NCBI GenBank assembly: GCA_032123355.1 | Contig: JAQBFM010000079.1 | Location: 1-54,837, forward strand | Reading direction: 5' to 3' | From: Lentisphaerales bacterium | GTDB lineage: Bacteria > Verrucomicrobiota > Kiritimatiellia > SPBP01 | DNA length: 54,837 bases | Part shown: positions 22,441 to 46,016 of the stretch, in pieces | How positions within the stretch are numbered: position 1 is the stretch's first letter | Layout of the letters: each line of letters begins with the position of its first letter | Position numbers and translations under genes: made by a program | The notes under the pieces: generated by a model | Databases searched by the model: none | The model's input: the letters and a program-made list of their open reading frames with translations, nothing else | What the model was told of the DNA's origin: nothing

Positions 22441-23298
22441 CTATCCCCGCTGATCACGAACGAGGGTGTGCAACTCAAGCTCCTCGAGAAACGGATCGAG
22501 TGCCTCGCTATCTACCGGTTTAACTCCAATATCCGCCAGCTCAACACGGGTATCCAGGTCACGGCGAAGGCGAACAAGATCAACGTTCCTGTCCACGATC
22601 GCACGAGATTCCCTGAGAGCCTCACGAATCCGGACCGGCTCAACCTCTTCAATGTGCGCGTATACCTCCCTTACGCTCTCGTACTTGACGAGCAGTTTCG
22701 CCGCGGTCTTTGGGCCCACGCCGCGAACGCCGGGGATATTGTCGGACTGGTCCCCGACAAGCGCCAGCAAATCGGGGATCACCGCCGGCCCCACACCCAT
22801 CTTCGCCTTCACACCTGCCTCGTCAAGAACATGGTCTATAGCTGAGGGGCGGATCACGGTCACCCCGGCGCCTACGAGCTGTAATAGGTCCTTGTCCGAG
22901 CTGACGACGACGATCGCCATGTCATCTCGAGCGAACCTGGAAACGAGCGTTGCTATTACGTCGTCCGCCTCGCATCCATCCATCATCACTTGAGGGACTC
23001 CTGAAAGTGTCAGGTACCGCGATATTAATGGTATTTGCCCCCTGAGCTCGTCTGGCATAGAGGGCCGCTGGGCCTTGTACGACGCAAGTATCGCCATACG
23101 TTCCACGGGCAGCCCTCCGTCGAACGTGACAATCCAGTGTGTCGGTTGAAGTATCCGCCTGTACTGCTCAATCATGCGTGCAAAACCATACACGGCATTC
23201 GTGGGTATACCCGCTGAGGTCGACAGGGACCGGATCGCAAAGAACGCCCGATAAATGAGGCCGTGTCCGTCTATAATAGCAAGTTTTGCGGAAGACAT
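22441..23298 (-). CDS. Stand-alone 5'-3' exonuclease / flap endonuclease (PolA N-terminal domain only)
   Basis: IIDGHGLIYRAFFA, PTNAVYGF, TFDGG, EADDVIAT, SDKDLLQL, GDQSDNIPGV.GVGPKTA; stops without a Klenow domain. Confidence 0.92.
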   Translation of the reverse strand: MSSAKLAIIDGHGLIYRAFFAIRSLSTSAGIPTNAVYGFARMIEQYRRILQPTHWIVTFDGGLPVERMAILASYKAQRPSMPDELRGQIPLISRYLTLSGVPQVMMDGCEADDVIATLVSRFARDDMAIVVVSSDKDLLQLVGAGVTVIRPSAIDHVLDEAGVKAKMGVGPAVIPDLLALVGDQSDNIPGVRGVGPKTAAKLLVKYESVREVYAHIEEVEPVRIREALRESRAIVDRNVDLVRLRRDLDTRVELADIGVKPVDSEALDPFLEELELHTLVRDQRG

Positions 23299-23415
23299 CG
23301 GAGGCAACTGGTCCTGCAGGACGCACTATACAAACACCGAACCGCTCGTCGGTAGACACTACCTGCCGCCGGATTCGGCTAGTTTATGAAATGGAGAAAC
23401 GACAGGACGAAAAGC

Positions 23416-26250
23416 CTACGGATTCTCGTCGGCCCCGGCAGTCATTGACTCGGTCCCAACGGGGATTGCCTTCCCTGAAGGATCCACCAGTCGAGCTGTG
23501 ACGAAAATAAGCAGGTTTCTCTTTGCGCTGGATTTCTGCTTGGACTTAAACAGACCGCCGATCAGCGGCAGCTCACCAAGGAAGGGAATTCTGTCATCAG
23601 TGCTATTCAAATCCTCGGAGATCAGCCCGCCCATGACCACCGTTGCGCCGTTGTAGACCTTAACTGTGGTGGAAACACTTCTTGCATGAAAGAAAGGCAT
23701 CAGCATCGGAATCCGCGATCCATCCCCAAGTTCATATCCGTAATCATGCCACTCCGGAGGAGTCACGACTTCCGGAGCAAGCGTAAGCTGGATAATACTG
23801 TTCCCCTGCGACAACTCTGGAAGAACCGTCAAAATGACACCCACTTCGCGTGTCTCGAACGTATCCGGCACAACCACCGTCGGCATCACACCGCCCCAGG
23901 CATCGCCACCGGCTATCTGGCCTTGCGTGACTCTGTATTCCGTCGGATAGATGTACTCCGTTACAACGCGAACCGTCGCTTCCAGGCCGGGCTGCGTGGT
24001 AACCTTCGGGGCAGACAGCAGATCAGCATGCCCGCTTTGCTCAATGGCGTGGAGAATCAGCGCCAACTCGGGATTAGTCAACACAGACTGGAAAGTCATG
24101 ATGCCGCTCGAGCCACCCGATGTGCCTGCCGTAGCGCCGATGCCCAGGGTGTTATAACGCAGGTTCTTGGTGAATCCCCCCTGCGTCGCGTTCTCTTGCA
24201 CGAGCATGCGCGGCCGCGCATTCAGCGCTCCCCCGGCGCCCTTTTTGGTCGCAACTTCGAAATCATCCGTAAGCAGCCACTCAAGTCCGAGCTCTTCCAG
24301 GTCAGTCTGCGCAATATCTACGAACCTGGTTTCTATCTCAACCTGCGGCTGCACGACATTAAGTTCCTGCAGAACTCGCTCAAAACTCGCAAGGTTCCCC
24401 TCCGTATTTGCCACAATCAGCTTGCCGATACTGCTATTATAACTGATTGAAGTGCCAATCGGGAACTGGACACCAAGCTGAATGAAATATGCCTTGAGAT
24501 CGCCTGTATCTGTATCCAGCGACGTCGGGGCAAGTGTAATGAATCCGCCACCATCATCACCGCCACCCATGGAAGCGTCTGCCCTCAACCTGGAAATGAC
24601 CGTGGGGTCGACCGCGTAGAACCGCGTCACAATTGTCCCCTCTGCAGCGTTCTGAGGAATAATCATAACGATGTTCTTCTCAACGCGAAACTTGAGGTTC
24701 GCCACCTCGGTTATGATCTTGATCGCATCGAGCAACGTTACGTATCGTGCCTGGAACGACACAGTTCTCTCTTCTTCGTCGCCGATATTGAGGATGATAT
24801 TAACGCCCCTGGCGAGTTCATCTTCTGTCGATTTGTCTGCTGCTATGCTGGCTTCCACCAGAAACTCGATAACGTCCTTGATATTCGCCTCGCGGAAGGA
24901 TATCTCAGGAATCCGAATCGATTCCATTTTATGCCGCAGCTTATCTTCCTCTCTCACGACGATGACCGATGTGTTTGAGCCATATGTTGTTATGCCGGTG
25001 TCAAGATAATGGTTATAGTCCCGTGGGTTCCAGGTCTCCCGCACGTCAGCTATTCGTTCGCGAGACATGGCGTCGCGCTCTGATGTTTCGCGACCATACC
25101 TGCGATTTTGAATACCTTTGAGACGATTGATGGCACTGTCGTTTGATGGGTCGATTGCCAGAACCATCTTAAGGCTCTCGGCCGCCTCCTTGAACTCATC
25201 AACCCGCATGTGTTCATCCGCCTTGCGGATCCACAGCTCGGCCCGTCTTTGCTTCTCCTGGTAGTCGCTGGCAACTCTTCTGCGAACACTATCACGTTCA
25301 GCAATAGACTGTTGCTCAGTAATACGCGCCTCAATCCGTTCCACCAGGCGTTCGGCACCCAGGAACTTCCTGTTTCTTGCCAGCGCCCTTTGAGCCATCA
25401 CGAGCGCCCCATCTTCGCCCGTCAGTTCGCCTTCATTTAGCAGATCCAGCGCCAGGTAGTACTCGGCAATCATTGCGCCGTCATTCGCCCTGCGAAAAGC
25501 ATCTGCAGTCTCCAGCCTCTTCGGAAGATGCGCTTCTGCATTAAGGAAATGATGCAGCGCCGTCTTGTAGGATCTCTCCATGAGTGCCTGTTCGGCAAGT
25601 TCCAGGTCATGCATTCCCTGGATCTCCACAGCGCGGTTACGAATAACCGCTTCCGCTTCCGGACCTTCCATTGTCTCGGCTTCGACCTCCAGCTTGGGAC
25701 CGCGCACCAACCGACGATCAGGCGAAGTTACAAATCCGCCGGGACCCCGCCGCATTCCATCTTCGCCTGCATCTCCACCAGAATCACTGCTAAGAATCTT
25801 TCGCAGGTCTTCCATATCGTCTGTCAAAGGCGTCGGCTGCATCTCCCCCGAGCCCTCTTCCACATCACCGAGCAAAGCTTCTTCATCAGCATCACCGAGC
25901 AAAGCTTCTTCATCAGCAAAGTCAGCATTGACTCCGTCGACAGCGTCCCGCGGAATCTCGCCTTCTGGCTCAATCGGTTCATCGAACATGTCGGGCTCAT
26001 CGAACCCGCCGGCATCGTCCGTTCCCCAGTCGTCAGAGCCGTCAGTTACGGGCTCATCAAAGCCCATGTCTTCGACTGCTCCCTTTTCCGGAGCAACAAC
26101 TTCGGTAGCCGGTTCGGAATCGAAGTCATCGCCGAGCAGATCCGCGAGCAATGCGTCGGAGTCATCCTGTGCAACAACAGGATGGAAAACTATTATCGCG
26201 AGCAAGATCGCAATAACCAGCAACGCTGCATATCGCATATGAACAGACAT
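23416..26250 (-). CDS. Secretin (GspD/PilQ family; Amuc_1098-like) with acidic N-terminus and TPR-like region
   Basis: Signal peptide; acidic low-complexity region; QVEIETRFV, LLSAPKVTT, FETREVGV.L.V.P, IPFLGELPLIGGLFKS, RNLLIFVTARLVDP; start 26250 or 26238. Confidence 0.92.
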   Translation of the reverse strand: MSVHMRYAALLVIAILLAIIVFHPVVAQDDSDALLADLLGDDFDSEPATEVVAPEKGAVEDMGFDEPVTDGSDDWGTDDAGGFDEPDMFDEPIEPEGEIPRDAVDGVNADFADEEALLGDADEEALLGDVEEGSGEMQPTPLTDDMEDLRKILSSDSGGDAGEDGMRRGPGGFVTSPDRRLVRGPKLEVEAETMEGPEAEAVIRNRAVEIQGMHDLELAEQALMERSYKTALHHFLNAEAHLPKRLETADAFRRANDGAMIAEYYLALDLLNEGELTGEDGALVMAQRALARNRKFLGAERLVERIEARITEQQSIAERDSVRRRVASDYQEKQRRAELWIRKADEHMRVDEFKEAAESLKMVLAIDPSNDSAINRLKGIQNRRYGRETSERDAMSRERIADVRETWNPRDYNHYLDTGITTYGSNTSVIVVREEDKLRHKMESIRIPEISFREANIKDVIEFLVEASIAADKSTEDELARGVNIILNIGDEEERTVSFQARYVTLLDAIKIITEVANLKFRVEKNIVMIIPQNAAEGTIVTRFYAVDPTVISRLRADASMGGGDDGGGFITLAPTSLDTDTGDLKAYFIQLGVQFPIGTSISYNSSIGKLIVANTEGNLASFERVLQELNVVQPQVEIETRFVDIAQTDLEELGLEWLLTDDFEVATKKGAGGALNARPRMLVQENATQGGFTKNLRYNTLGIGATAGTSGGSSGIMTFQSVLTNPELALILHAIEQSGHADLLSAPKVTTQPGLEATVRVVTEYIYPTEYRVTQGQIAGGDAWGGVMPTVVVPDTFETREVGVILTVLPELSQGNSIIQLTLAPEVVTPPEWHDYGYELGDGSRIPMLMPFFHARSVSTTVKVYNGATVVMGGLISEDLNSTDDRIPFLGELPLIGGLFKSKQKSSAKRNLLIFVTARLVDPSGKAIPVGTESMTAGADENP
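25863..25916. repeat. Exact 27-bp tandem duplication inside the secretin gene
   Basis: catcaccgagcaaagcttcttcatcag x2, giving ADEEALLGD twice. Confidence 0.95.
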
Positions 26251-26308
26251 CAATCCAGTCACGTTCTTATTGCGCAAGAAATCGCCTACCCTAGAAACCA
26301 CCCTTGGC

Positions 26309-27370
26309 CTAGCGCCCAATTGGCACCTCCTTATTCGTGACGAAGTCAAAAAGTATCACCTTCTCTTTCTTCGCGTCAATATCTTTGACTAAGTATTTCT
26401 GCCCTTTTATGAGAACTTCCTGGCCCACCTTGATGACTATGACTTCGTCGGTGGGAACATACCTCAGTTTTGCTGACTTTTCCCAGTCTCCCTGCTTACG
26501 ATTCATCACCAGCACTATCTTCTTCTCACCCGCTTGAAGCGTCAGTTCTGACACATCTTCCTTCTTGATTGTGTTAAGGGATGGGGTCGGCACATCCATC
26601 GTCTTTTGAACGAAGTCAGCTATAGTAAAGCTCAACACCTGTTCGCCCATTCTCTTCCAGTATGTCTGTCCTTCTACGTGGTTGATAGAGAAGATCATCT
26701 TCTTGTCCTCACCCCTCATGTAGCTCTTGAAAATCATATTGAACGCCGCAACCCTTATTTCGCCAGCTACGAGTTTGCCAAATGCGTAAGCCGGGGGCGC
26801 GCTCTCGGCATCCGTCGGATCCGACTCGACCCCGTATTCCATGGTCGATCGAAACTCCTCTAGATTCGTAAAGCCATCGTCATCAGGATCCTCGGAAGCA
26901 TCATCACTGTTGTTGGAATCCAGCTGATATTTTGCCTCCCACTCATTCGACATGCCGTCGCCGTCGTCATCACCTTCCGGTGGAGACTCCGACCCCGGTT
27001 GCTCTTTGCCGCAGAAAGGACACACCAGGGCCAGGTACTCGATCGGTTTCTTGCACGCCATGTTCACACAGCTGACCCGCGTGGGTGGAACAGTGAGGCT
27101 TTCAGTGGAAACAATAGAGAGCTGAAACGGCTTCTGGATCTTCCCAAGCGCGTCAGCAAATGGTTCGTGCGCTATCGCTTCTACACGCGGAAACTCGGGC
27201 CGGAGTCCTGTCAGCCGTTGTTGAAACTCTTTCTGATCCTTCCGCGCGACCGCAGCTCGTACACCAAGCAGAAATATGGAAGCAATCAGCCCAACGAGAA
27301 CGGCAACGACCGCCATCTTCTCGTAGTGCCCTTTGAAAGCAAATCCCAGTTTGTTAAGATCAAGACTCAT
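26309..27370 (-). CDS. Pilus-like system protein (Amuc_1099-like) with Cys cluster and DxDxDG Ca-binding repeats
   Basis: N-terminal TM; CVNMAC...CPFC; DDDGDGMSNEWE..DPDDDGFTNLEEF; position between Amuc_1100-like gene and secretin. Confidence 0.7.
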   Translation of the reverse strand: MSLDLNKLGFAFKGHYEKMAVVAVLVGLIASIFLLGVRAAVARKDQKEFQQRLTGLRPEFPRVEAIAHEPFADALGKIQKPFQLSIVSTESLTVPPTRVSCVNMACKKPIEYLALVCPFCGKEQPGSESPPEGDDDGDGMSNEWEAKYQLDSNNSDDASEDPDDDGFTNLEEFRSTMEYGVESDPTDAESAPPAYAFGKLVAGEIRVAAFNMIFKSYMRGEDKKMIFSINHVEGQTYWKRMGEQVLSFTIADFVQKTMDVPTPSLNTIKKEDVSELTLQAGEKKIVLVMNRKQGDWEKSAKLRYVPTDEVIVIKVGQEVLIKGQKYLVKDIDAKKEKVILFDFVTNKEVPIGR

Positions 27371-28380
27371 GATTGGGGCCCGACCTGACTTTCTGACGGC
27401 TTCAGGAACGTATACACATCTATCGTTATTGTGACGGTCGCGTTCGCTTCCTTTGCTCTTCCGCTGACTACACGCTGATCCCGATATCTCTTATCATCCT
27501 GCATCTCCGCGTCCTCTGCATCCTCAGACAGCTTGTCCACATCCGTGAACAGATTGTCGGCATCGCCACCGCGCGCCCTTCTGGCCCAGCGAGCACGGGG
27601 ATCCACCTTAGCCTCGGTCTCCTGGACAACGTCCGAACTGGCGGTTATTTCCATGTTTGCAACGACAATAAACATCGGATCCCTGGCAATAGCGTTCAGG
27701 GACTCGACCAAGGCTGCCTCCTTGGTACCGAACTCGAAGATAAACCGTTCCCTCGCATAGATGCTCTCGAAAATATCAACCTCGGACTCCGCGCCTTCCG
27801 CAACAGCAGTTGCTTCAGTCCTGCCTCTTGGCCTGGATGTCGATTCGAACTCCTCACGTTTGATTGCAACCAATTCCTTGATGCCAGCTTTATACAGAAG
27901 AGAGCACAACTGTTCCACCATCCTCAGCTGCTTGGTAAGTCGCGGCACGGCATTTCGAGAGGGCGGTCGACCATCATCGTACGACTGAAAACTGAACGCG
28001 AACCTTTCTGGCAACACAATCTTCGATCCTGACGCTTCCGTTCGCAGATCGCTCTGCATCTTGTTCAAGCTTGCTAACCACTGCAGGGGCGATCCACCCT
28101 CCTTCGGTTCCTGCACCTGCATTTTCCTCATGCTATCCAGCAACGACTTCATTTCCTTCTGGTAATCGTCACGATTCTGCAGGATCGCATCGACGTTTGC
28201 CTGTTCCGGGAAAGGATTCCTGTGATAGATCGATTCCAGTGCAGACCACGCAAGGTTCAGCCCGCTCGAGGAAGAGCCCAGTTTGGCCCGTTCTCTAAGC
28301 AGTAGAATCCCGATCAGCGCCAGCACAACAACTTCCACAGACAGGACAACCATCAGGGCTATCTTTGTTTTGCGTCTCAC
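27367..28380 (-). CDS. Amuc_1100 family pilus-like protein (PilO-like)
   Basis: N-terminal TM, coiled coil, FAFSFQSY...P...LTKQL..V..L...GIKEL pattern; position after pilM. Confidence 0.72.
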   Translation of the reverse strand: MRRKTKIALMVVLSVEVVVLALIGILLLRERAKLGSSSSGLNLAWSALESIYHRNPFPEQANVDAILQNRDDYQKEMKSLLDSMRKMQVQEPKEGGSPLQWLASLNKMQSDLRTEASGSKIVLPERFAFSFQSYDDGRPPSRNAVPRLTKQLRMVEQLCSLLYKAGIKELVAIKREEFESTSRPRGRTEATAVAEGAESEVDIFESIYARERFIFEFGTKEAALVESLNAIARDPMFIVVANMEITASSDVVQETEAKVDPRARWARRARGGDADNLFTDVDKLSEDAEDAEMQDDKRYRDQRVVSGRAKEANATVTITIDVYTFLKPSESQVGPQS

Positions 28381-28392
28381 GATTCTAAGATC

Positions 28393-30030
28393 CTACAGCT
28401 CCATCGGGTTCTTCAACGCTGCGCGTATTGTAAAGCCCAGGCTGTACTCATTCGCAGTCACGATCCGCTCAACGTCAACATCGTCTGTAAAGAAAGAGCT
28501 GGTCTTCAGGGCATTGCCGAATTCACCGACCGTCGCAGCGTCGGGCACTTTGTCGACGAATCCTACGCCGGTAATCCGGAGTTGGCCGACGAACTGCTTG
28601 CCCTCGCGCGTCTCAAGCACGGGGTTCACGGAAGAGATCCACATTCCCTCAACTGTTCTGCTCTTAAGGTCATCCAGGATCTCCATCCATTGAGTGCGAG
28701 CGCTTACAAGATAAAGCAGTCTCTCTGCCTTCTTTTGAACCACAAGCGCCTCGGACATGTATTGATCCAACTGTCCCTGGACCATATCGAAGGCCACCGA
28801 CCCCTGCTCAATCTTTGCCAGATTGCGTTCGGATGTCACCCTGAGTCGCAGGAAATAATACCACCAGACAGAGACCGTCAGCACGAGCCCGACCGCGACA
28901 GCAATAAGAAAAGGAATCTTTGATTTGAACAGCTTGCGCGCCACAAGATGCTGCGGCATGAGATTAATCTCCATCGGACAGGAGAACAGCTTTCTCAATG
29001 CCACCCCGGTCACCTCGCCAAGCAGGTGTATTTTAGTCGCAACATCCTCAGAGGGAATACTGTTTGATACGGTGATGCGCTCGAACGGATTCAAGAACTC
29101 AACATCCAGCCCGAGTTTCTCACGAAGGAAGGTGTCCGTCTGCGGCATTACGCATGTGCCTCCGCAAAGCAGTAGAAGTGATGGCTTCCTTCCATTCTGC
29201 TGACTGCGATAGAAATTGATGGAACGGCTCACTTCAGCATGAAGCCGCGTCATTACGCTTCGTACCGTCTTCGATACCCGGTTGACAACGTGACTCTCTG
29301 CGCCGTCTACGGCCCCGCCAAAAGCCACGAAGGCATGCGCAAGCTTGAGTTCCTCGGCATCCTTGAAGGGAATCTCGAACTCCTTCATGAGCTCCTGCGT
29401 GATCGTGTTGCCGGCTATCGGAATACTCCGGGTAAAGCACCGTTCCTTCTCAATAAAGATCAGGTTGGTTGTTCTGGCCCCCATGTCCATCACGAGCGTG
29501 CAGGTATCGAGCTCGCCGTAGTTGAACCGCACGAGGTTATATAACGCCAGTGGCGCAACATCCACGACTTCCGGATCCAGCCCGGCTGCCTCGACACAAT
29601 CAGTGATCTTCTTCACCACGTCCGTCTTCATGGCAACAAGCATCACGCTCTGAGAACCGTCGGAGCTGTCGATCAGCTGATAATCCCACACCACCTCGTT
29701 TATCGGAAATGGCACATTCTGCTGGGCTTCATACTGAACTATCTGGTCGACCTTATCGTGGGCAGCCGGGGGAAGCTTGATAAAACGCGGGAACACATCC
29801 TTGCCCGAAACCGACAGTAAGACGGGGCCGGGTTTGATGTCCTGCTCCCTCATCATCTCGCGGACAGCCGATACGATATACGCCGAAGTATCCAACTCGT
29901 CACCCGGATCAACTCCGAGCGGAGCGATTGCATACTTGAGCAGCTTCAGGCCCATCGGCTTCAGCTGCTCAAACAAGGCGATCGTCAGCTGACTTGCGCC
30001 GATATCCAGGCTGATAATATCATTCGGCAT
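28393..30030 (-). CDS. pilM: Type IV pilus assembly protein PilM with fused PilN-like C-terminus (Amuc_1101-like)
   Basis: SLDIGAS, EAQQNVPFP, DMGARTT, IPIAGNTIT, RSINFY, LCGG; then INLMP (PilN N-terminal motif), TM helix and periplasmic domain. Confidence 0.88.
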   Translation of the reverse strand: MPNDIISLDIGASQLTIALFEQLKPMGLKLLKYAIAPLGVDPGDELDTSAYIVSAVREMMREQDIKPGPVLLSVSGKDVFPRFIKLPPAAHDKVDQIVQYEAQQNVPFPINEVVWDYQLIDSSDGSQSVMLVAMKTDVVKKITDCVEAAGLDPEVVDVAPLALYNLVRFNYGELDTCTLVMDMGARTTNLIFIEKERCFTRSIPIAGNTITQELMKEFEIPFKDAEELKLAHAFVAFGGAVDGAESHVVNRVSKTVRSVMTRLHAEVSRSINFYRSQQNGRKPSLLLLCGGTCVMPQTDTFLREKLGLDVEFLNPFERITVSNSIPSEDVATKIHLLGEVTGVALRKLFSCPMEINLMPQHLVARKLFKSKIPFLIAVAVGLVLTVSVWWYYFLRLRVTSERNLAKIEQGSVAFDMVQGQLDQYMSEALVVQKKAERLLYLVSARTQWMEILDDLKSRTVEGMWISSVNPVLETREGKQFVGQLRITGVGFVDKVPDAATVGEFGNALKTSSFFTDDVDVERIVTANEYSLGFTIRAALKNPMEL

Positions 30031-30046
30031 GTTGGTCCCTGCCGCA

Positions 30047-30727
30047 TCAACGGCGGATGGTCTCAAAATCCCAGTAGTTCACGTAGGCAAAAGGTGTTTC
30101 CCCGCGGTTCAGAAGCAAGCCGGAGCGTAATGTGACCTGGTCACTGTTCCGGATCTCCTGCGACTTCCACCACTGCCCATCGGCCAGACGGGCCTGAGGA
30201 CTCTCGTCCGACTTCCACACTGTTTCAGTACCGTATGTTATTTCAATGGCAACGGCAACGATATCGCCCAGCTTCGCGATCGTGCGAGGATGCAGGTACA
30301 TCTCGCTCATGTGATCCTTGCCATCGCCGACATCAGTGTATGTAACATCGCCCTCAAGAAGTGAATACGGTGTCTCCGCATCTTTATCCTTGGTAAGCAT
30401 GAGCACATAGAAACGGCACGAGAGCGTATTCATCCATTCAGGCTTTGAATCGTAGACTACCCTGACCCTTCCCCAATCCGGAGAGCGGGCCTTCCTGGAC
30501 GGCTCCGAATTGCGAATATTGTACTCAGGCGCCCGAACCTGAATGGACTGAGATAGCGTTTGAATCTTGAGATTCTCAGAGGCGTCTCCCTCTGATCCCT
30601 TTACCCCGGAGGCGGCGGATCCTCCGCGAACAGGCCTTCGTATCTGTCCCATCGACTGATGAATAGCAACAACGCACGCCACAGCCAATGAGATTATCAA
30701 TACATGCCGCAATCCACACTTATGCAT
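30047..30727 (-). CDS. Secreted protein, Amuc_1102-like first gene of the pilus-like locus
   Basis: Signal peptide, SD aaggag; beta-rich domain (W..V.V.Y, FYVL, G.VTY, MYLHP); assignment mainly from gene order. Confidence 0.6.
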   Translation of the reverse strand: MHKCGLRHVLIISLAVACVVAIHQSMGQIRRPVRGGSAASGVKGSEGDASENLKIQTLSQSIQVRAPEYNIRNSEPSRKARSPDWGRVRVVYDSKPEWMNTLSCRFYVLMLTKDKDAETPYSLLEGDVTYTDVGDGKDHMSEMYLHPRTIAKLGDIVAVAIEITYGTETVWKSDESPQARLADGQWWKSQEIRNSDQVTLRSGLLLNRGETPFAYVNYWDFETIRR

Positions 30728-32016: not shown

Positions 32017-34101
32017 CTATCGCGCTTCGAGGAAGCCCTCAAGCTTGCGAATTCGCGTGGGATGCCTCAACTTGCGGAGTGCCTTTGCCTCAATCTGCCG
32101 GATTCTTTCTCGGGTCACCGCAAACTGTTTCCCGACCTCTTCAAGGGTCCTGGAATAACCGTCTGCTAATCCGAACCTGAGGTTCAGCACCTCCCTCTCT
32201 CTCGGCGTCAGCGTATGAAGCACATCCTTCAGCCTCTCCTTCAACAGGCTGTAGGCTGTCATCTCGGATGGGTTCTCAGCGGACTTATCTTCAATAAAGT
32301 CGCCAAAGTGCGCATCCTCTCCATCACCTACCGGGCTCTGCAGCGAAATCGGCTGTTGAGCCATCTTATATACGGCCCTGACCCGTTCCACCGGCAGGCC
32401 CATCTCATCAGCTGCCTCTTCTGGGGTTGGCTCCCGACCAAGCTCCTGGACAAGCCTCTTCTGGACCCGCAGCAGCTTGTTGATCGTTTCGATCATGTGA
32501 ACGGGGATCCTGATCGTCCGGGCCTGGTCTGCAATCGCCCTCGTTGCAGCCTGACGAATCCACCATGTAGCGTAGGTGCTGAACTTGTAACCACGGCGGT
32601 ACTCAAACTTCTCCACCGCCTTCATCAGTCCCGTATTGCCTTCCTGGATCAGGTCAAGAAATGAAAGACCGCGATTCATGTATTTCTTTACGATACTGAT
32701 CACCAACCGCAGATTCGCCTCGACCATCTCCGTGCGTGCCCGTTCGCCCTTTCGCATGTCAGCCTTCAGCGTCTTGAAGGCCTCGTCAAGATCCGCCGGC
32801 GTCATGCAAGCTTCGAGCGCATGCCCCTTTATCGCCGTCTCGAACTGCTTGATTCCCTCTGCTCGTTTCTTACTCTTTCGTTTCGCAGTGAACATCTCCA
32901 GCTCTGTCATGTCCTTGCGAAAAGCAACGTAAATTCCATCAATTGCCGCCTGCGTCAGTGACTCCACAACTTTCTGCTTGAAGTAAAGAGAGTCATACAA
33001 TGCCGACGTCTTCTGTCGCGCTTTCTCCAACAGCTTACCTCGCCGCGTCCGCTCACTGTTCGACATCTGTTTCCGCAGCGTTGCCATGAATGCCTTTGCC
33101 TGGATCTCGCGAGCCCGTACTACACTCCTCTTAAGACTAGGAAGCTTCTTTATGTAATCCCACCGGCTGTCGACATACTTATCCTGAATAACCCTGTCGA
33201 ATCTTTCTCCCCCGCTCTCGATCCTTTCAACAAGATCAAGGTACATATCTCCCGCACATCCCATCCGGTTAAAGAGGCCCCTCGTGGATATCTCGGCATC
33301 CTCGATTCGCTTGCAGATCTCGACTTCCTGCTCGCGCGTCAATAGCGGTACCTGTCCCATCTGGTGGAGGTACATCCGGATCGGGTCGTCGAACATGTCG
33401 AACCGTTCGGCTCGAGCAGTCTTCTCATCCTTTTCCGCCTGCTTCTTGTGCTTCTCGACCTCTGACTCCTCAATTATCTCAATCTCCATTTCGCGGAGAA
33501 GGAGCAGGTACGCCTCGAGCTCTTCGGGGTCGACAACACTGTCCGGCAGGGCCTCGTTGATGTCCTGGAAAGTGAGATAGCCCTGATCTTCGGCAAGACG
33601 GATCAGCTCTTTAAGCTTCTGGTTCCGCTCCGCCTTCTTCTGATCCGCCTGCTCCTCGGTCATCTGCTCTTCGTCGACCACCTTAAGATCGATACGCCCA
33701 CTCCTGGCCGATTTCTTGCGTGCCAGAGACTTAGTGGCAGCAGCCGAGCGCTTAAGAAGCTTTTGCTTCTTTACGGATCCTGCCCGAGCGGAGATCTTCT
33801 TCGCATCTGACCCAGCCTTCTTGCGTTTCAGCTTGGCCACTACGACTTTCCTGCCGACGGCAACTTTCCGCTTCTTTGCGGCGATGGGCTCGCGTGCAGA
33901 TTTCTTGGGCTTGCTTTTCGTGGGACGCACAGTCTTCTTCCGTGCAACCGATCCTGCACGGCTCTTCTTCGCACTCTTCCGAGTCACCCCGGATTTAGAG
34001 ATCTTCTTCCGCCCTGACGCCTTGGCCTTACTGACTCTCTTCGGAGCAGCCGCGCTTCGCCGCTTCTGCTTCTTGCCTTTTGGTTTCGAGCTCTTTGCCA
34101 T
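32017..34101 (-). CDS. rpoD: RNA polymerase primary sigma factor RpoD
   Basis: [61 protein letters not shown]; start set at ATG 34101 after SD ggag. Confidence 0.97.
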
Positions 34102-34701
34102 TATAACTCCATCAAACGCCAGGATTACGGATACACCCCACCCATTATACATCCCAATGGGACGAACGCCAAGCAATCGATTAGTTTGCCATCTGAGGAA
34201 ACGCTTCTCAAGCAGTAAAACCGAAAAAGAATGAGGCCAGAATCTGACGGACATCGGGCACTTTCCCGCCATACCAAGCACATATCCGCATCTGAAAACG
34301 GGAAACTGAACCTTGTACTCTAATGCTCCACACCAATCGCCAAGGCGGCGATGATGCCCACACAACGGACCGGCCGGTCGTACAGAAACATGCCGGTCAT
34401 ACAACATACACTCCAAATACACTCCAAACATGCGGCAAAACACAGACCCGCTGTTGCTGCGCTTCCCGTCCGATGAATGCGATTCAAAGGCGTCAATATG
34501 CTGTCAACATCCGCCGGTTGAACATTCGTTTGCGCGGTACCCCGCCGAAATCGCAATGTGACTAACCACAAAAAGACATCCGAAAGACAGGCTGAAAGCT
34601 TGACGCATGTGCCGCTTACGAGTAACAATGCAGACTGAATTATGGCATGGGTTCACACAATCCAGCTAGGCTTGTGTGTTGTGTAGACAAGGAGAACTAC
34701 A

Positions 34702-40245: not shown

Positions 40246-41142
40246 TCACGCCGCAGATGTACCGGGCATTTTCAGATGTTCGGGTATTGCTGGCATTGCA
40301 CCTGGCTGAGTGCAGACGTAAGCCGCAAGCTCAGCCGCGTGCGCATGCAAGTCCTTCAGCGGACGGCCAGCCAGCAACCCCATCACCAGTGCCGCCGTGA
40401 AGGCATCACCCGCACCAACGGTGTCGACAACAGAGACCTTCGCCGGACCAAGTTCGCTTCGGTCGGATCCCGACATCACCACGCTTCCCTGGTCCCCCTT
40501 CGTCAGAGCAACGACCTTCAGTCCAAACTTCTCAATCAACCCGTGCATCACATACTCCTCAGCGCCATCCAGGGCAAGGAGCTCAGCGATAACGGGCAAT
40601 TCCTCCTCATTGCATTTCAGAACGTCACTCATGGCTACCGTCGTTGCTATTGTCTCCTGACTGAAATACGACTGACGCAGATTCACATCGAACACCTTCA
40701 GTGCATCACTGCCCGAACACTTGATTACTGCCCTGACAGCATCGCGAGAAACACTGTTTCGTTGGGACAGCGATCCGTAGCAGATTACGGAAGCACCGGC
40801 GGCAACATCCCTTAGACAATCAGTGGCGGCGATAAAATCCCACGCCACATTCTCGTGGATCACGTACCGTGGTTTGCCGGCAGAATCGAGTTCAACACTG
40901 ACAGTGCCCGTAGCGTGAAGAGGATCCACGTCGACACACGACACATCCAGCCCTGCCTCCGACAGCTCACGAAGAAGATCCTCGCCGTCCTCATCGTTAC
41001 CGACGCGACTCAAGACATAAGCTTCTGCGCCAAGTGCAAGGCAATGGTAGGCAAAATTGCATGGTGCACCACCCAGTTTACGGCCGGCAGGCAGAAGATC
41101 CCACAGCACCTCTCCAACACCAACTACAACGATCCGGTCCAT
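40246..41142 (-). CDS. PfkB family carbohydrate kinase (fructokinase-like)
   Basis: GEVLWD, GGAP.NFA, FDVNLRQ, DTVGAGDAF. Confidence 0.92.
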   Translation of the reverse strand: MDRIVVVGVGEVLWDLLPAGRKLGGAPCNFAYHCLALGAEAYVLSRVGNDEDGEDLLRELSEAGLDVSCVDVDPLHATGTVSVELDSAGKPRYVIHENVAWDFIAATDCLRDVAAGASVICYGSLSQRNSVSRDAVRAVIKCSGSDALKVFDVNLRQSYFSQETIATTVAMSDVLKCNEEELPVIAELLALDGAEEYVMHGLIEKFGLKVVALTKGDQGSVVMSGSDRSELGPAKVSVVDTVGAGDAFTAALVMGLLAGRPLKDLHAHAAELAAYVCTQPGAMPAIPEHLKMPGTSAA

Positions 41143-42212: not shown

Positions 42213-42301
42213 CAGACACCACCCCTTTCATATCCCCGCTTGCCGCAGCTCAGCGCCGGCACGAACCACGACGAAACTGCCGCCACACCACCGACTTTCT
42301 T

Positions 42302-42418
42302 TCACCATGAAGAACATGAAGAGCATGAAGGGTCGAAGAACAGGGCTTGCGGTCCATCCTTGATCATCCCGCACTGAATCTCACCAGGAACAACCTCTCT
42401 TCATGACCTTCATGGTGA
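42302..42418. repeat. 22-bp inverted repeat built from 9-bp catgaag units
   Basis: tcaccatgaagaacatgaagag (42302-42323) vs reverse complement of 42397-42418 tcaccatgaaggtcatgaagag (20/22). Confidence 0.85.
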
Positions 42419-42453: not shown

Positions 42454-43467
42454 TCAGTTACTGCCGGTCCATGGCTGGAACCCGAGCTGACGCGCCACAT
42501 CCTCTTCCATGTATGTGCCGTGCCCCTTGCCGTAGAACTCAGAATCCTTTCGAAAATATATTCCGCTCCGCTGGTTGACCCACACATCACCTGGATCGCC
42601 AGCATGCGGAGACACCGCGGGTCCCGTCCGCCCGCCACCACCACCACCACCACCACCGCCCCCTTTCGAGCTGGTGGTCTCGGCCTGCTTCTTCTGCCAG
42701 ATCGTCCCCTGTGTCGATTCCAGCTCGTTCTCGGCCCCGTCCGGCAACTCACGCAGGAAATCCAGACCTGTAGCACCTTCAACCTTATCTATTGAGCACA
42801 CGTATCGTTCAATGCTTCCCGACGCGTTCATCGGAAGGAGGAATGCCACCGGCAGCATGATGTCAGCTTCCTTGCGCAGGACGATCTTAAAAAGACCTTC
42901 AGGAACGGCAATACGGCCGCGATCTGTTCGTTTCGGCGATTCACCGAGCACGGGCCCGGTCATTACCCATACCTCACCGTATTCCTTCGCCCAATCCCTC
43001 ACCCGCTCCTCTATATCGTGCCATACCTTGAGGAACCCCTCACCCGGCTCGATCGCGACCACGTTCGCAAGCGAATAGGACATCTTTTCCGTGCCCTCGC
43101 CTCTACCGAGGCTGTCCAGCGGCGAAAGCAGCTGAAGCGTTTCGTATCCCGACGCTTCTATGTCGCCATCTGTCGCTGAACGAAGGCCTTTTTCGACAAT
43201 GATCGGATCTACGAAATACTTGTGCTGCTTCACGAGTTGCCCGCCGGTGCAATACATGGGCGTCAAGTGATACGCCACGCAAACCGGCGTCCTCAACGTC
43301 GAGCTGTATCCGGAATAGTATGCATTGTGCGAAATCGGATACCCACCCCTCGGGCGTCCGAAAAGCACGTGCTCGCTTTCGTTGTCCTTGTCGCCCTCAA
43401 GCTCCTGTGCAAACACTGGAGCCACAAATGCCGCTACGAACAACAGCGCCGATAGAACCTTTTTCAT
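42454..43467 (-). CDS. Secreted DNA/RNA non-specific endonuclease-fold protein with degenerate active site, poly-Gly linker and small C-terminal domain
   Basis: Signal peptide; Y..GYS..LR.P..VAYHL, F..DP, W..IE..VRDWA..YGEVWV.TGP, P..LFKIV, AFLLP, SID.VE..TGLDF scaffold; SGY-ETLQ in place of SGY-DRGH. Confidence 0.82.
   Translation of the reverse strand: MKKVLSALLFVAAFVAPVFAQELEGDKDNESEHVLFGRPRGGYPISHNAYYSGYSSTLRTPVCVAYHLTPMYCTGGQLVKQHKYFVDPIIVEKGLRSATDGDIEASGYETLQLLSPLDSLGRGEGTEKMSYSLANVVAIEPGEGFLKVWHDIEERVRDWAKEYGEVWVMTGPVLGESPKRTDRGRIAVPEGLFKIVLRKEADIMLPVAFLLPMNASGSIERYVCSIDKVEGATGLDFLRELPDGAENELESTQGTIWQKKQAETTSSKGGGGGGGGGGGRTGPAVSPHAGDPGDVWVNQRSGIYFRKDSEFYGKGHGTYMEEDVARQLGFQPWTGSN
42631..42663 (-). 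repeat. Glycine codon run (11 Gly, 7 x GGT)
   Basis: ggg ggc (ggt)7 ggc ggg on the minus strand. Confidence 0.95.
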
Positions 43468-43512
43468 ATCTGTACTCCTCCTTCATACGTCCTGGTATCA
43501 ACATCCATTATC

Positions 43513-44571
43513 TCACCGCACCTGCCACAAATACATCAGTCTTGATTGCACCTGGTGCCCGTCTATTCTCAGATCAAGGCCAGGCCTGGCAAAACTCTTC
43601 AAAAGCGAAGAAAGCCCCAATTCATGGTCGTAACGCAACACCTTCACATTTTCGACGTCCAGCATTCCGCAAAGCCGCGCAACCGCATCGTCCCAGTACC
43701 CGATCTCATCAATGAGCCTGCAATCGAGAGCCTTTGAAGCCGACAGCACGCAACCATCCGCTATCTCCTTTACCTCTTCGACGGTTAACCCGGGCCGCCC
43801 ATTCACAATCAATTCAACAAATCGCTCATACATCTCGTCGACCATCTCCTGCAGCATCGCCCGCTGTGACTCCGTCAGGTCTTCGAAGGGACTCAGAAGG
43901 TTCTTGTTCTCACCCGACTTAACGGTCTCCATGCGTACGCCGTATTCGTCACCAAGCCCTTTTATGTTCAGCTTGCTTATCATCACGCCGATCGAGCCCG
44001 TCAACGTCGTGGGATGTGCAATGATGTAATCGGCAGCCACTGCAACATAGTATCCGCCCGAGGCTGCCAGGTCGCCCATGATTGCGATCACTTGCCTGCC
44101 GGCCTGTTCAGCCTTGAAATCCATGACAGCCCTGTGAAGAAGGTCCGAGGCAGTGATGCTGCCACCGGGACTATCTATCTCAAGAATCAGGCCCTTGATC
44201 TCAGGGTCCTTCGTTGCCGCTCGTATCTGCCGCAGCGCCTTCTCGACCGGCCCCTCCTCACTGAACCATCCTGCGTCTTCCTCTGAAGAAACCAGCACAC
44301 CCCGCACCGGAATGCGGACAACACTCACATCGCCACTTCCGTATGACCAGACGGCACGCAACGACGGCACGTCGTCAACCCCTGCATCCGTCCCGCCCTT
44401 CCGTGCGCCTATGATCGCAAAGACTGCAACAAACAGAAGCACCGTAGCGAACGCCGAGGCGATCGGCGATACCAGGCCCATTGTCAGTCCCCACAGGCAG
44501 CCAGTTCGGCCGCCCGGCTCCCGTGCCCTGCGCCTGGGGATTGGTGGTATAGATTCAGAACAATCATTCAT
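43513..44571 (-). CDS. sppA: Signal peptide peptidase SppA (S49)
   Basis: IDSPGGS, AASGGYY (catalytic Ser), TLTGSIGV, KSGENK; N-terminal TM. Confidence 0.92.
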   Translation of the reverse strand: MNDCSESIPPIPRRRAREPGGRTGCLWGLTMGLVSPIASAFATVLLFVAVFAIIGARKGGTDAGVDDVPSLRAVWSYGSGDVSVVRIPVRGVLVSSEEDAGWFSEEGPVEKALRQIRAATKDPEIKGLILEIDSPGGSITASDLLHRAVMDFKAEQAGRQVIAIMGDLAASGGYYVAVAADYIIAHPTTLTGSIGVMISKLNIKGLGDEYGVRMETVKSGENKNLLSPFEDLTESQRAMLQEMVDEMYERFVELIVNGRPGLTVEEVKEIADGCVLSASKALDCRLIDEIGYWDDAVARLCGMLDVENVKVLRYDHELGLSSLLKSFARPGLDLRIDGHQVQSRLMYLWQVR

Positions 44572-44622
44572 TATGCAACATCCTATCGCATGCACAGCCA
44601 AAGTTCAAGTGACGAACCGATC

Positions 44623-45768
44623 TCAACCCGCTTTTCCATCAGGCTCCGCCCCTGGCCGAATGGGCTTCCGCAGCTTTCCGTACAGCCCGAGCAGGAAATC
44701 GCGGTTGTCAGCCCTCGCATACCGCGTCGTTCCTCCCATTCGATTGAACGTCTTCAGGTATCTCCTGTAGTAGGACGGATCTGATGAAGCAGGTTCGGAT
44801 CCCGAGCTCCATCCTTTACCTGCCGGCGCAAGATCTATGACCGCAGTCCATAAATCGTTGATGTGTTCGCCCTTTGCGATGTGCAGATTCTGACACATCG
44901 ACAGCGCCTTTTCGAATATCATGGGTGACATCACCGCAGAACCGATCGATATGTATGCGCCGCCATCAAGTCGGTTCACACCCTCGGCGAACGCCAGAAA
45001 GTCCCGGAGTCCGGTCCTCCCGATGGCAGCCCCGCTATTCAACGGATGTGTATATATGATGTCGTGTCCTATCATCGGCAATCCGAAGAATGGTATCCCC
45101 AGTCGAAATGCCGCCGCCTGGACACTCAGGTGCTTGAACTTGTGCGGTATCTCGTGACGGCCCGGCCTGACATTCAGCCCCGTCATGATCGTGAGCAGAT
45201 CCGATGCGGCCGCGCTGCAGGCCGGGTCCGACTCCAGGTTGGCCGTTATTTCCTGTCTCAACGTCCCGGACTCGGGAAGGTTGAGACACTCCTGTTCAAT
45301 CATCGCACCAACCGACTCCCCGTAGCCCATGCCCAGGTACGCGCCAACGCCGATGGCCAGGTTGATGTAGCGACCGGTTTCCTCCCAGATTCCGAACCGG
45401 CCGGCATCGACATTTTCCTTTACGTCTTCCCCGGTCTCTCCCTGGTACGCCAGTTCCCAGTCATGAATGACCCCCGCCCCGTTCGTCGCCAGGTGCGTCA
45501 CCCATCCATCATCCATCAACTTGATAAGGAGCGGTCCCAGCCCGTTCTTGATCGTGTGCGCACCGAACGTCAGCATTACAGGCCTGCCATTCTTCTTCGC
45601 AGCAACCACGCGCTCAACCGTCTCGTCAACGAGCAAACGAGCCGCCCTCGAGAGACCGCGCGGCTTGGCATCGACTGGAACCATGTCCGTAGCGGCGAAC
45701 ACCCGGTTCCTTCGTTCCGACAGTGGCCTGATTCTCAAAGCCTTTCTATCGAGTTGTTTGTGTGGCAC
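44623..45768 (-). CDS. Deoxyhypusine synthase-like (DHS-like NAD-binding fold) protein of unknown function
   Basis: LTFGAH.IK.GL, HLATNGAG.IHD.E, IGHDI, IGSAV..P..FEKAL; GTG start after SD aggag. Confidence 0.65.
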   Translation of the reverse strand: MPHKQLDRKALRIRPLSERRNRVFAATDMVPVDAKPRGLSRAARLLVDETVERVVAAKKNGRPVMLTFGAHTIKNGLGPLLIKLMDDGWVTHLATNGAGVIHDWELAYQGETGEDVKENVDAGRFGIWEETGRYINLAIGVGAYLGMGYGESVGAMIEQECLNLPESGTLRQEITANLESDPACSAAASDLLTIMTGLNVRPGRHEIPHKFKHLSVQAAAFRLGIPFFGLPMIGHDIIYTHPLNSGAAIGRTGLRDFLAFAEGVNRLDGGAYISIGSAVMSPMIFEKALSMCQNLHIAKGEHINDLWTAVIDLAPAGKGWSSGSEPASSDPSYYRRYLKTFNRMGGTTRYARADNRDFLLGLYGKLRKPIRPGAEPDGKAG

Positions 45769-45864
45769 TTCGCAACTCCTCAACCCTTTAGCCAAACTCA
45801 ACATCGCGGACCCATCAATCCGCTTGCCAATCCGTGTACGTCAGGCTAACCTGAATCATCTGGA

Positions 45865-45939: not shown

Positions 45940-46016
45940 GCCCCCGTAGCTCAGCTGTATAGAGCAGCGGCCTTCTAAGCCGCGGGTCGCAGGTTAGAGT
46001 CCTGCCGGGGGTGCCA
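45940..46016 (+). tRNA. tRNA-Arg (anticodon TCT)
   Basis: Cloverleaf: acceptor gcccccg/cgggggt, D stem gctc/gagc, anticodon stem gcggc/gccgc with loop cttctaa, T stem gcagg/cctgc, A20, encoded CCA. Confidence 0.95.

Follow-up and report, generated by a model that had tools for sequence, protein, structure and literature searches.

The gene at positions 42454 to 43467 (minus strand) of contig JAQBFM010000079.1, a 54,837-nucleotide stretch of a Lentisphaerales bacterium genome (GCA_032123355.1) that we analyzed as a whole and call the window, encodes a protein of the PF01223 nuclease family that has lost its active site; judging from its sequence, it very probably cleaves no nucleic acid by the mechanism of that family and is a dead, non-enzymatic protein that has been kept by selection. 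We propose that it is an exported non-catalytic pseudo-enzyme that acts in the envelope, most likely together with the signal peptide peptidase SppA, an explanation to which, taken as a whole, we assign a probability of roughly 0.45. Pseudo-enzymes derived from PF01223 are known in animals, and a bacterial family that combines full ancestral loss with coupling to sppA is newly found here. The case appears unusually clean: the catalytic and substrate-contacting set was lost once, in an ancestor, a C-terminal mini-domain lost its His and Cys residues as well, and the protein was long retained.

A nuclease fold without its active site

The open reading frame is unbroken and specifies 337 amino acids plus a stop. 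A strong Shine-Dalgarno sequence (GAAGGAGGAG; ctcctccttc on the plus strand) is followed by the ATG 7 nt downstream, and the N terminus reads as a Sec-like signal peptide (MKKVLSALLFVAAFVAPVFA, then QE), a region that is modeled as a helix at low pLDDT; a similar hydrophobic N terminus is present in all family members. The protein matches the PF01223 (Endonuclease_NS) hidden Markov model (HMM) at an E value of 2.1e-16 and 60.7 bits against a cut-off of 23, and a phmmer comparison with PDB sequences recovered EndoG, NucA, Serratia nuclease, and EXOG at E values of 1e-5 to 1e-4. An AlphaFold2 model built from a 28-sequence alignment (mean pLDDT, 85; pTM, 0.70) places the nuclease-like domain above a pLDDT of 90, with the finger strands at residues 109 to 112 and 136 to 139 and the helix at residues 143 to 163 kept, while the linker is disordered at residues 270 to 287 and the C-terminal module reaches a confident pLDDT of 86 to 93. 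Foldseek searches with this model recovered Serratia nuclease (E value, 4e-16; TM score, 0.77) as well as NucA, EndoG/CPS-6, and EXOG, with TM scores of 0.77 to 0.80 and root mean square deviations of 2.7 to 2.8 Å to 1qae, 1zm8, and 5gkc, and the top matches include the catalytically inactive NUC domain of autotaxin (E value, ~2e-15). Together, the profile match and the predicted structure confirm a NucA/Serratia/EndoG fold and homologous membership in PF01223, the family of the active Serratia marcescens nuclease, Anabaena NucA, and EndoG/EXOG. The bacterial enzymes of this family carry an export signal peptide, as the window protein is predicted to do, and its nearest active relatives share with it a GRG..CE loop; it nonetheless scores only 61 bits against PF01223 compared to 170 to 183 bits for active relatives. 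An initial annotation, made from the window sequence alone, had described an intact reading frame with signal peptide and Shine-Dalgarno sequence, a NucA/EndoG fold, and well-kept scaffold motifs, and all of these points were borne out, the motifs GY..SY, WVAY.L, SN, W, and TG.DF being present.

In this nuclease family, the histidine of the DRGH motif is the general base and an asparagine binds Mg2+. Our HMMER alignment places SGY-ETLQ of the window protein on SGY-DRGH and ANVVAI on SN(M/I)-PQ, so that PQ is replaced by AI, and GFLKVW is aligned with x-N-R-x-x-W, the segment of the Mg-binding Asn. We examined these columns in a 155-sequence alignment comprising the query, the initial homolog hits, and the matches listed when 1.84 billion cluster representatives were searched exhaustively. 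Of the 155 sequences, 137 have H in the His column, 139 have N in the Asn column, and 141 have G in the Gly column of DRGH, so the substitutions represent genuine departures rather than alignment noise. Alignment to PF01223 therefore agrees with the initial annotation on each of the replacements it had read from the sequence (ETLQ for DRGH, AI for PQ, and the loss of the Asn), and the catalytic deadness it had deduced from them is supported, as both the general base and the Mg ligand are missing. A His89Gln substitution alone cuts the activity of Serratia nuclease to <0.001%, as cited in PMC3479092.

The losses are common to a group of relatives. Among the matches listed from the exhaustive search, ten further representatives at 34 to 44% identity (E values of 1e-46 to 1e-68) align over their full length, C-terminal module included, and all are without DRGH and without the Asn; in place of DRGH they carry WPLP, PPLF, LETP, WALS, STVL, VPLF, LL, or FPLT. 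With the window protein, these make up about 11 clusters at 50% identity, which we refer to as the dead clade, and the general-base His is never present among its 11 members, nor is there a conserved Asn. A FastTree phylogeny of the domain recovered the dead clade as monophyletic (SH-like support, 0.995) with a mean depth of ~1.07 substitutions per site and placed the active protein P0018 and another degenerate protein, P0015, as its sister group. This monophyly and depth indicate one ancient loss, with the protein kept since.

Beyond the motifs themselves, the former active site as a whole has lost its constraint. The finger segment (window residues 104 to 160) is the most conserved part of active homologs, with a mean column identity of 0.63, whereas in the dead clade it falls to 0.54, below the domain average, and is the least conserved segment, with beta-sheet core segments at 0.63 to 0.64. 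All of the catalytic and substrate-contacting positions that are at least 80% conserved in active proteins, namely R80, D109, R110, G111, H112, P115, P138, Q139, N145, and E153, are relaxed in the dead clade. Positions 80, 110, and 153, which we take to be the equivalents of Serratia R57, R87, and E127, reach 90%, 88%, and 99% conservation in active sequences; for the dead clade the corresponding values are 22%, 50% (as Pro), and 40%. Where the Gly used to be, the dead clade has acquired a conserved Leu (Leu111), and the strand is now largely hydrophobic. Further residues whose conservation is specific to the clade are G121, R122, K128, S132, R198, K199, and G217. The nuclease-like domain of the window protein is acidic (pI 5.0; net charge, -10), and among family members the net charge lies anywhere between -15 and +8. 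Because the contact residues are relaxed, the segment that holds them is the least conserved, and the charge is acidic and variable, we argue that the old nucleic acid cleft is probably no longer a functional site.

The same alignment bears on whether the protein might still be an enzyme, either a nuclease or some other hydrolase, with catalytic residues drawn from another part of the fold. PacI-type His-Me enzymes use Tyr in place of His (PMC5714182), and His150 of the window protein, next to the invariant Trp149, would be a candidate. However, the residues found at the position of His150 across the clade are H, R, K, G, A, Q, Y, and E; no conserved His, Asp, or Asn occurs within residues 104 to 160 across the dead clade except for the structural N135; and this whole segment is relaxed, which makes such an activity very improbable.

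Selection on the gene argues against decay. Near-identical genes occur in many independent aquatic and marine-sediment metagenomes, and an orthologue at 81% identity (L001) lies in the same context of sppA, pseudo-nuclease, alcohol dehydrogenase (ADH), and PfkB kinase genes and has the same ETLQ and likewise no Asn. Between the two orthologues the ratio of nonsynonymous to synonymous substitution rates (dN/dS) is 0.085 at a dS of 1.13 (Nei-Gojobori method); by region it is lowest in the C-terminal mini-domain (0.026), somewhat higher in the nuclease-like domain (0.063), and highest in the linker (0.185). The flanking sppA, ADH, and PfkB genes, at 0.07 to 0.12, are in the same range. The initial annotation had allowed that homologs might share the loss under purifying selection, which is what we observed, or that this copy might be simply decaying. 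Recent inactivation, with the gene now turning into a pseudogene, would account for the missing catalytic residues and nothing further, and it has next to no chance of being correct given the intact reading frame with its Shine-Dalgarno sequence and signal peptide, the transcription described below, the near-identical copies in many metagenomes, and a loss common to a clade about 1 substitution per site deep; the dN/dS and the deep monophyletic clade refute it.

In four metatranscriptome runs there are contigs that align to the gene with 0 to 1 mismatches and show that it is transcribed, with the caveat that DNA carry-over is possible. In three of those runs the pseudo-nuclease is the sole protein-coding gene covered between positions 41100 and 46000, the other coverage being fragments at the tRNA near 45943 and the intergenic region near 42300 to 42330. 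The coverage in this 4.9-kb stretch hints at expression above that of sppA and the other neighbors, or at a promoter of its own.

A scan of genome contigs identified a single member of the clade, in a metagenome-assembled genome (MAG), and a profile word search for further members returned three proteins. Outside the dead clade, P0015, P0047, P0066, P0100, and P0146 are also without the general-base His, often with Gln instead, and most of them are without the Mg-binding Asn too (P0066 keeps it), which suggests, at the level of sequence comparison, that pseudo-nucleases arose repeatedly among bacterial PF01223 proteins. Another relative, P0017 (525 amino acids), has two tandem PF01223 domains, the first with DRGQ (His to Gln) and the second with an intact DRGH, and is a possible dead-plus-live tandem.

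Inactive His-Me/PF01223 domains have been described in eukaryotes, including the NUC domain of the ENPP proteins and autotaxin and the Smad MH1 domain (PMC5714182). Like the window protein, the NUC domain of ENPP1-3 and autotaxin (group 21 of that classification) is an inactive domain reused as a structural or binding body, but it is eukaryotic and is fused to a phosphodiesterase domain that it braces, whereas the window protein, from a bacterium, has just a 42-amino-acid mini-domain as a second folded part. The same His-Me classification lists no inactive bacterial PF01223 group (PMC5714182), and our full-text literature search recovered, within the papers it covered, no described bacterial PF01223 pseudo-nuclease family and no nuclease-like partner of SppA.

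A ligand-less mini-domain on a flexible linker

The nuclease-like domain is followed by a linker whose glycine run comprises exactly 11 residues (positions 269 to 279), as the initial annotation had stated; at the DNA level the run is an almost perfect trinucleotide repeat (ccaccacca... on the plus strand). The orthologue at 81% identity has a different, non-repetitive linker at this site, so the run is probably young and could change in length by slippage.

The C-terminal module of ~42 amino acids, with the pattern G.VW...G.Y[FYH]...S..YG.G.G..M.E..A..LGF in the clade, is the most constrained part of the protein, as its dN/dS attests. It had been described at first as holding no Cys or His; the absence of Cys stands, but one His (H316) is present, although it is not conserved in the family. 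The module has no Pfam match at E values up to 10 and no match among PDB sequences, and a word-indexed search of 5.8 billion proteins found no free-standing small homologs of it. A tblastn search against plasmids, however, recovered the same pattern at the end of exported proteins of Ralstonia, Cupriavidus, Burkholderia, and Polymorphobacter, in which a DUF3761 domain and an Ala/Pro linker precede VWAN.STKVYHCP..RYYGKTK.G.YM.E..AKA.G....GKAC. A profile-profile comparison of the dead-clade module with this proteobacterial set gave a probability of 97.6 and an E value of 3e-12. The active nucleases P0037 and P0055 end in a related tail containing one His and three Cys, which matches the dead-clade profile with a probability of 77 (E value, 2e-5) and the proteobacterial set with a probability of 94 (E value, 8.5e-8). 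In P0037, P0055, and P0128 and in the DUF3761 proteins of Burkholderiales and Sphingomonadales, the module has the same arrangement as in the window protein, being ~42 amino acids long and C-terminal after a low-complexity linker. These profile comparisons support a relationship of the module to His/Cys modules attached to nucleases, in line with the resemblance that the initial annotation had pointed out. The His and Cys positions of the relatives are Phe or Tyr, Ser, and Trp in the dead clade, or are absent. Because the ligand positions of the module are gone as well, both metal-dependent ancestral parts were stripped of their ligands while their folds were kept. These comparisons point to an unnamed ~42-amino-acid mini-domain that is absent from Pfam and common to active nucleases and many proteobacterial exported proteins.

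Modeled alone, the module forms a beta-beta-beta-alpha fold (pLDDT, 83) with a net charge near neutral. Its top three Foldseek matches are all to the N-terminal domain of Escherichia coli Ada (1wpk, 1u8b, and 1zgw; E values, 0.5 to 2.6; query TM scores, 0.53 to 0.61), and an hhalign comparison with an approximate Ada sequence places F, S, W, and S of the window protein on Cys38, Cys42, Cys69, and Cys72 (E value, 0.035). The active nuclease P0128 has a weak match to PF02805 (Ada zinc-binding). Assignment of the module itself to PF02805 (Ada_Zn_binding) was rejected, as there is no HMM match and no Cys, the residues aligned to the four ligands being F, S, W, and S; we regard a relation to Ada as a weak lead and do not claim it.

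The initial annotation had gone on to suggest that the dead nuclease binds nucleic acids outside the cytoplasm as a DNA or RNA receptor, a protector, or a decoy, possibly feeding uptake by a pilus-like system. Its nuclease descent and kept fold would suit such a role, as would the kinship of the mini-domain to modules on active nucleases, the weak Foldseek matches of the mini-domain to the DNA-binding Ada domain, and the ComEA-like HhH DNA-binding domains that P0003 and P0004 hold at the same C-terminal position. Precedents are Tsal1 and Tsal2 of tsetse saliva, PF01223 proteins with a His-to-Gln change that bind nucleic acids with high affinity and keep nearly all of the other cofactor- and substrate-binding residues (PMC3479092). 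Like the window protein, these are secreted members of the family with Gln at the general-base site that are retained despite almost no nuclease activity, and they are abundantly expressed; unlike it, they are eukaryotic and have no C-terminal mini-domain and no peptidase partner, and the window protein has lost the other residues too. Here R80, the Arg of DRGH, PQ, Asn, and Glu are all relaxed, the cleft is where conservation is lowest, the domain is acidic with a charge that varies among relatives, and the mini-domain is near neutral, all of which argues against nucleic acid binding. The proposed link to uptake fares no better, since the PilM-to-secretin cluster (positions 23416 to 30727) lies 12 kb off, with rpoD, FecR, SurA-like, and radical-SAM genes between, and does not recur beside other clade members in the loci that we fetched. 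We consider nucleic acid binding unlikely, though a serious alternative.

Linkage to sppA and a proposed role in the envelope

The product of the gene upstream of the pseudo-nuclease matches TIGR00706 with 199 bits against a cut-off of 155 and has both the AASGGYY motif with the Ser and the KSG motif with the Lys. In each of the 11 dead-clade lineages, at the loci that we fetched, an S49 peptidase gene lies directly upstream on the same strand, with a gap of 4 to 100 bp, whereas the remaining flanking genes vary. These sppA-linked loci are the window, L001, L052 to L058, and L060, where L058 is the same MAG contig as L007 and L059 holds the same match. By contrast, active PF01223 relatives are not beside sppA: a tblastn search with the window SppA through 492 kb of sequence from 47 loci that carry other PF01223 homologs found no S49 homolog, and the active relative P0021 adjoins an antiporter subunit gene instead. 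The pair has been kept while SppA itself diverged to 49 to 57% identity between lineages, and retention of this kind usually indicates a functional operon; no terminator-like site was found between sppA and the pseudo-nuclease gene. Because every lineage keeps the gene immediately after sppA, we infer a joint role of the two proteins in the envelope, and on the strength of gene order we put an SppA-coupled role at a little short of an even chance.

Several points weigh against this coupling. The link to SppA rests on gene context, and the clade may be one bacterial lineage, so that the synteny would be partly inherited. The metatranscriptome contigs cover the pseudo-nuclease more than sppA, which puts strict co-transcription in question, and the 3' end of sppA contains a weak promoter-like match, albeit one not above chance. 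Several observations would accord with an envelope protein unrelated to SppA, structural or adhesive in the periplasm, whose adjacency reflects inherited order or shared transcription: purifying selection is strong with no identifiable ligand, the clade is perhaps taxonomically narrow (one match in the genome collection, with the others from sediment and lake metagenomes), and the gene possibly has its own promoter, with transcript coverage above that of sppA. Yet the pair, its strand, and its short spacing were kept in all 11 lineages while every other flank changed, and we hold an SppA-unrelated role to be distinctly unlikely.

Pseudoenzymes often regulate active paralogues, and because Serratia nuclease and EndoG are homodimers, a dead paralogue could in principle tune or mask activity by heterodimerizing with an active PF01223 nuclease or competing against it. 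The retained fold and the occurrence of active relatives in many bacteria would be compatible with such a regulator. However, neither the 55-kb window nor any of the dead-clade loci contains an active PF01223 gene, and the linkage to sppA would be left unexplained, so this explanation appears improbable.

The course of events we propose for the SppA-coupled pseudo-enzyme begins with a secreted Mg-dependent nuclease of the NucA/Serratia type bearing a tethered His/Cys mini-domain. In the ancestor of a small environmental clade, this protein lost Asp-Arg-Gly-His, Pro-Gln, the Mg-binding Asn, the Glu, and the upstream Arg. Its mini-domain was likewise stripped of metal or disulfide ligands, and both folded parts have since been retained under strong purifying selection. 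The dead nuclease, in the periplasm or as a secreted protein, serves as a non-catalytic scaffold and would be a partner, regulator, or dedicated substrate of SppA. Contact would be made through protein-protein interactions, the dead nuclease domain being the body and the constrained mini-domain, held by the flexible linker, the end that interacts, and a linker with a constrained terminal module would suit a tethered plug or a processing site. At the level of mechanism, it is possible but rather doubtful that the dead nuclease body with its ligand-less mini-domain binds SppA and either gates or inhibits its proteolytic chamber or is processed by it. S49-like proteases of the NfeD type are encoded with their stomatin substrates. 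In Bacillus subtilis, SppI (YteJ) is encoded in an operon with sppA and acts on SppA via its C-terminal domain (PMC7568657). The pseudo-nuclease resembles SppI in the placement of its gene with sppA, an analogy by gene context with no homology expected, and differs from it in being derived from a nuclease, as SppI is described as a membrane protein with no nuclease kinship reported (PMC7568657).

If the coupling is functional, it would provide a testable handle on how envelope proteases of the SppA type are regulated or targeted outside the Firmicutes. It would also represent a secreted nuclease scaffold turned to protein-protein use and the first bacterial PF01223 pseudo-enzyme family in a signal-peptide-peptidase pathway, in which a secreted nuclease gave rise to a regulator of envelope proteolysis.

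Feature coordinates and neighboring genes

Coordinates of the pseudo-nuclease gene, its parts, and its upstream neighbors, and of mini-domain relatives, are collected in the table.

Table 1. Features of the pseudo-nuclease locus in the window, with relatives of the mini-domain at other loci
Feature	Positions	Strand	Remarks
Pseudo-nuclease gene	42454..43467	-	Signal peptide, dead PF01223 domain, disordered linker, C-terminal mini-domain
Shine-Dalgarno sequence GAAGGAGGAG	43475..43484	-	Read from sequence
Predicted Sec signal peptide, residues 1-20 (MKKVLSALLFVAAFVAPVFA / QE)	43408..43467	-	Read from sequence
Nuclease-like domain, residues 30-255	42703..43380	-	Beta-beta-alpha finger retained (E109-112, E136-139, H143-163)
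ETLQ replacing DRGH	43132..43143	-	General base His to Gln, phosphate-contacting Arg to Thr, Gly to Leu
GFLKVW replacing x-N-R-x-x-W segment	43021..43038	-	Mg-binding Asn lost
Disordered linker, residues 256-292	42592..42702	-	Rich in Gly/Ser/Pro/Ala/Thr; includes Gly11 run
Gly11 run, residues 269-279	42631-42663	-	
C-terminal mini-domain, residues 293-337	42457..42591	-	Beta-beta-beta-alpha; lacks the His/Cys ligands that its relatives carry
sppA (S49 signal peptide peptidase, 36K type)	43513..44601	-	45 bp upstream of the pseudo-nuclease gene; start uncertain (alternative near 44571)
GSU2086-family protein gene (NF052581)	44623..45804	-	21 bp upstream of sppA
Relatives of the unnamed ~42-amino-acid mini-domain	L063 253-750; L064 223-753; L065 244-747		

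The immediate neighbors in the window are housekeeping genes, with the GSU2086-family gene, sppA, and the pseudo-nuclease joined by a Zn-dependent alcohol dehydrogenase-family gene and a PfkB kinase gene. The order GSU2086, sppA, pseudo-nuclease also occurs in L007 (55% identity), and in L055 the GSU2086 gene is adjacent on the opposite strand. No PDB relative of the GSU2086-family protein was found; it has a faint resemblance to deoxyhypusine synthase. Farther away on the minus strand, a PolA-like gene (22441 to 23307) consists of 5'-3' exonuclease domains alone, and RpoD (32017 to 34443) is unusually long at 808 amino acids, with a long N-terminal extension.

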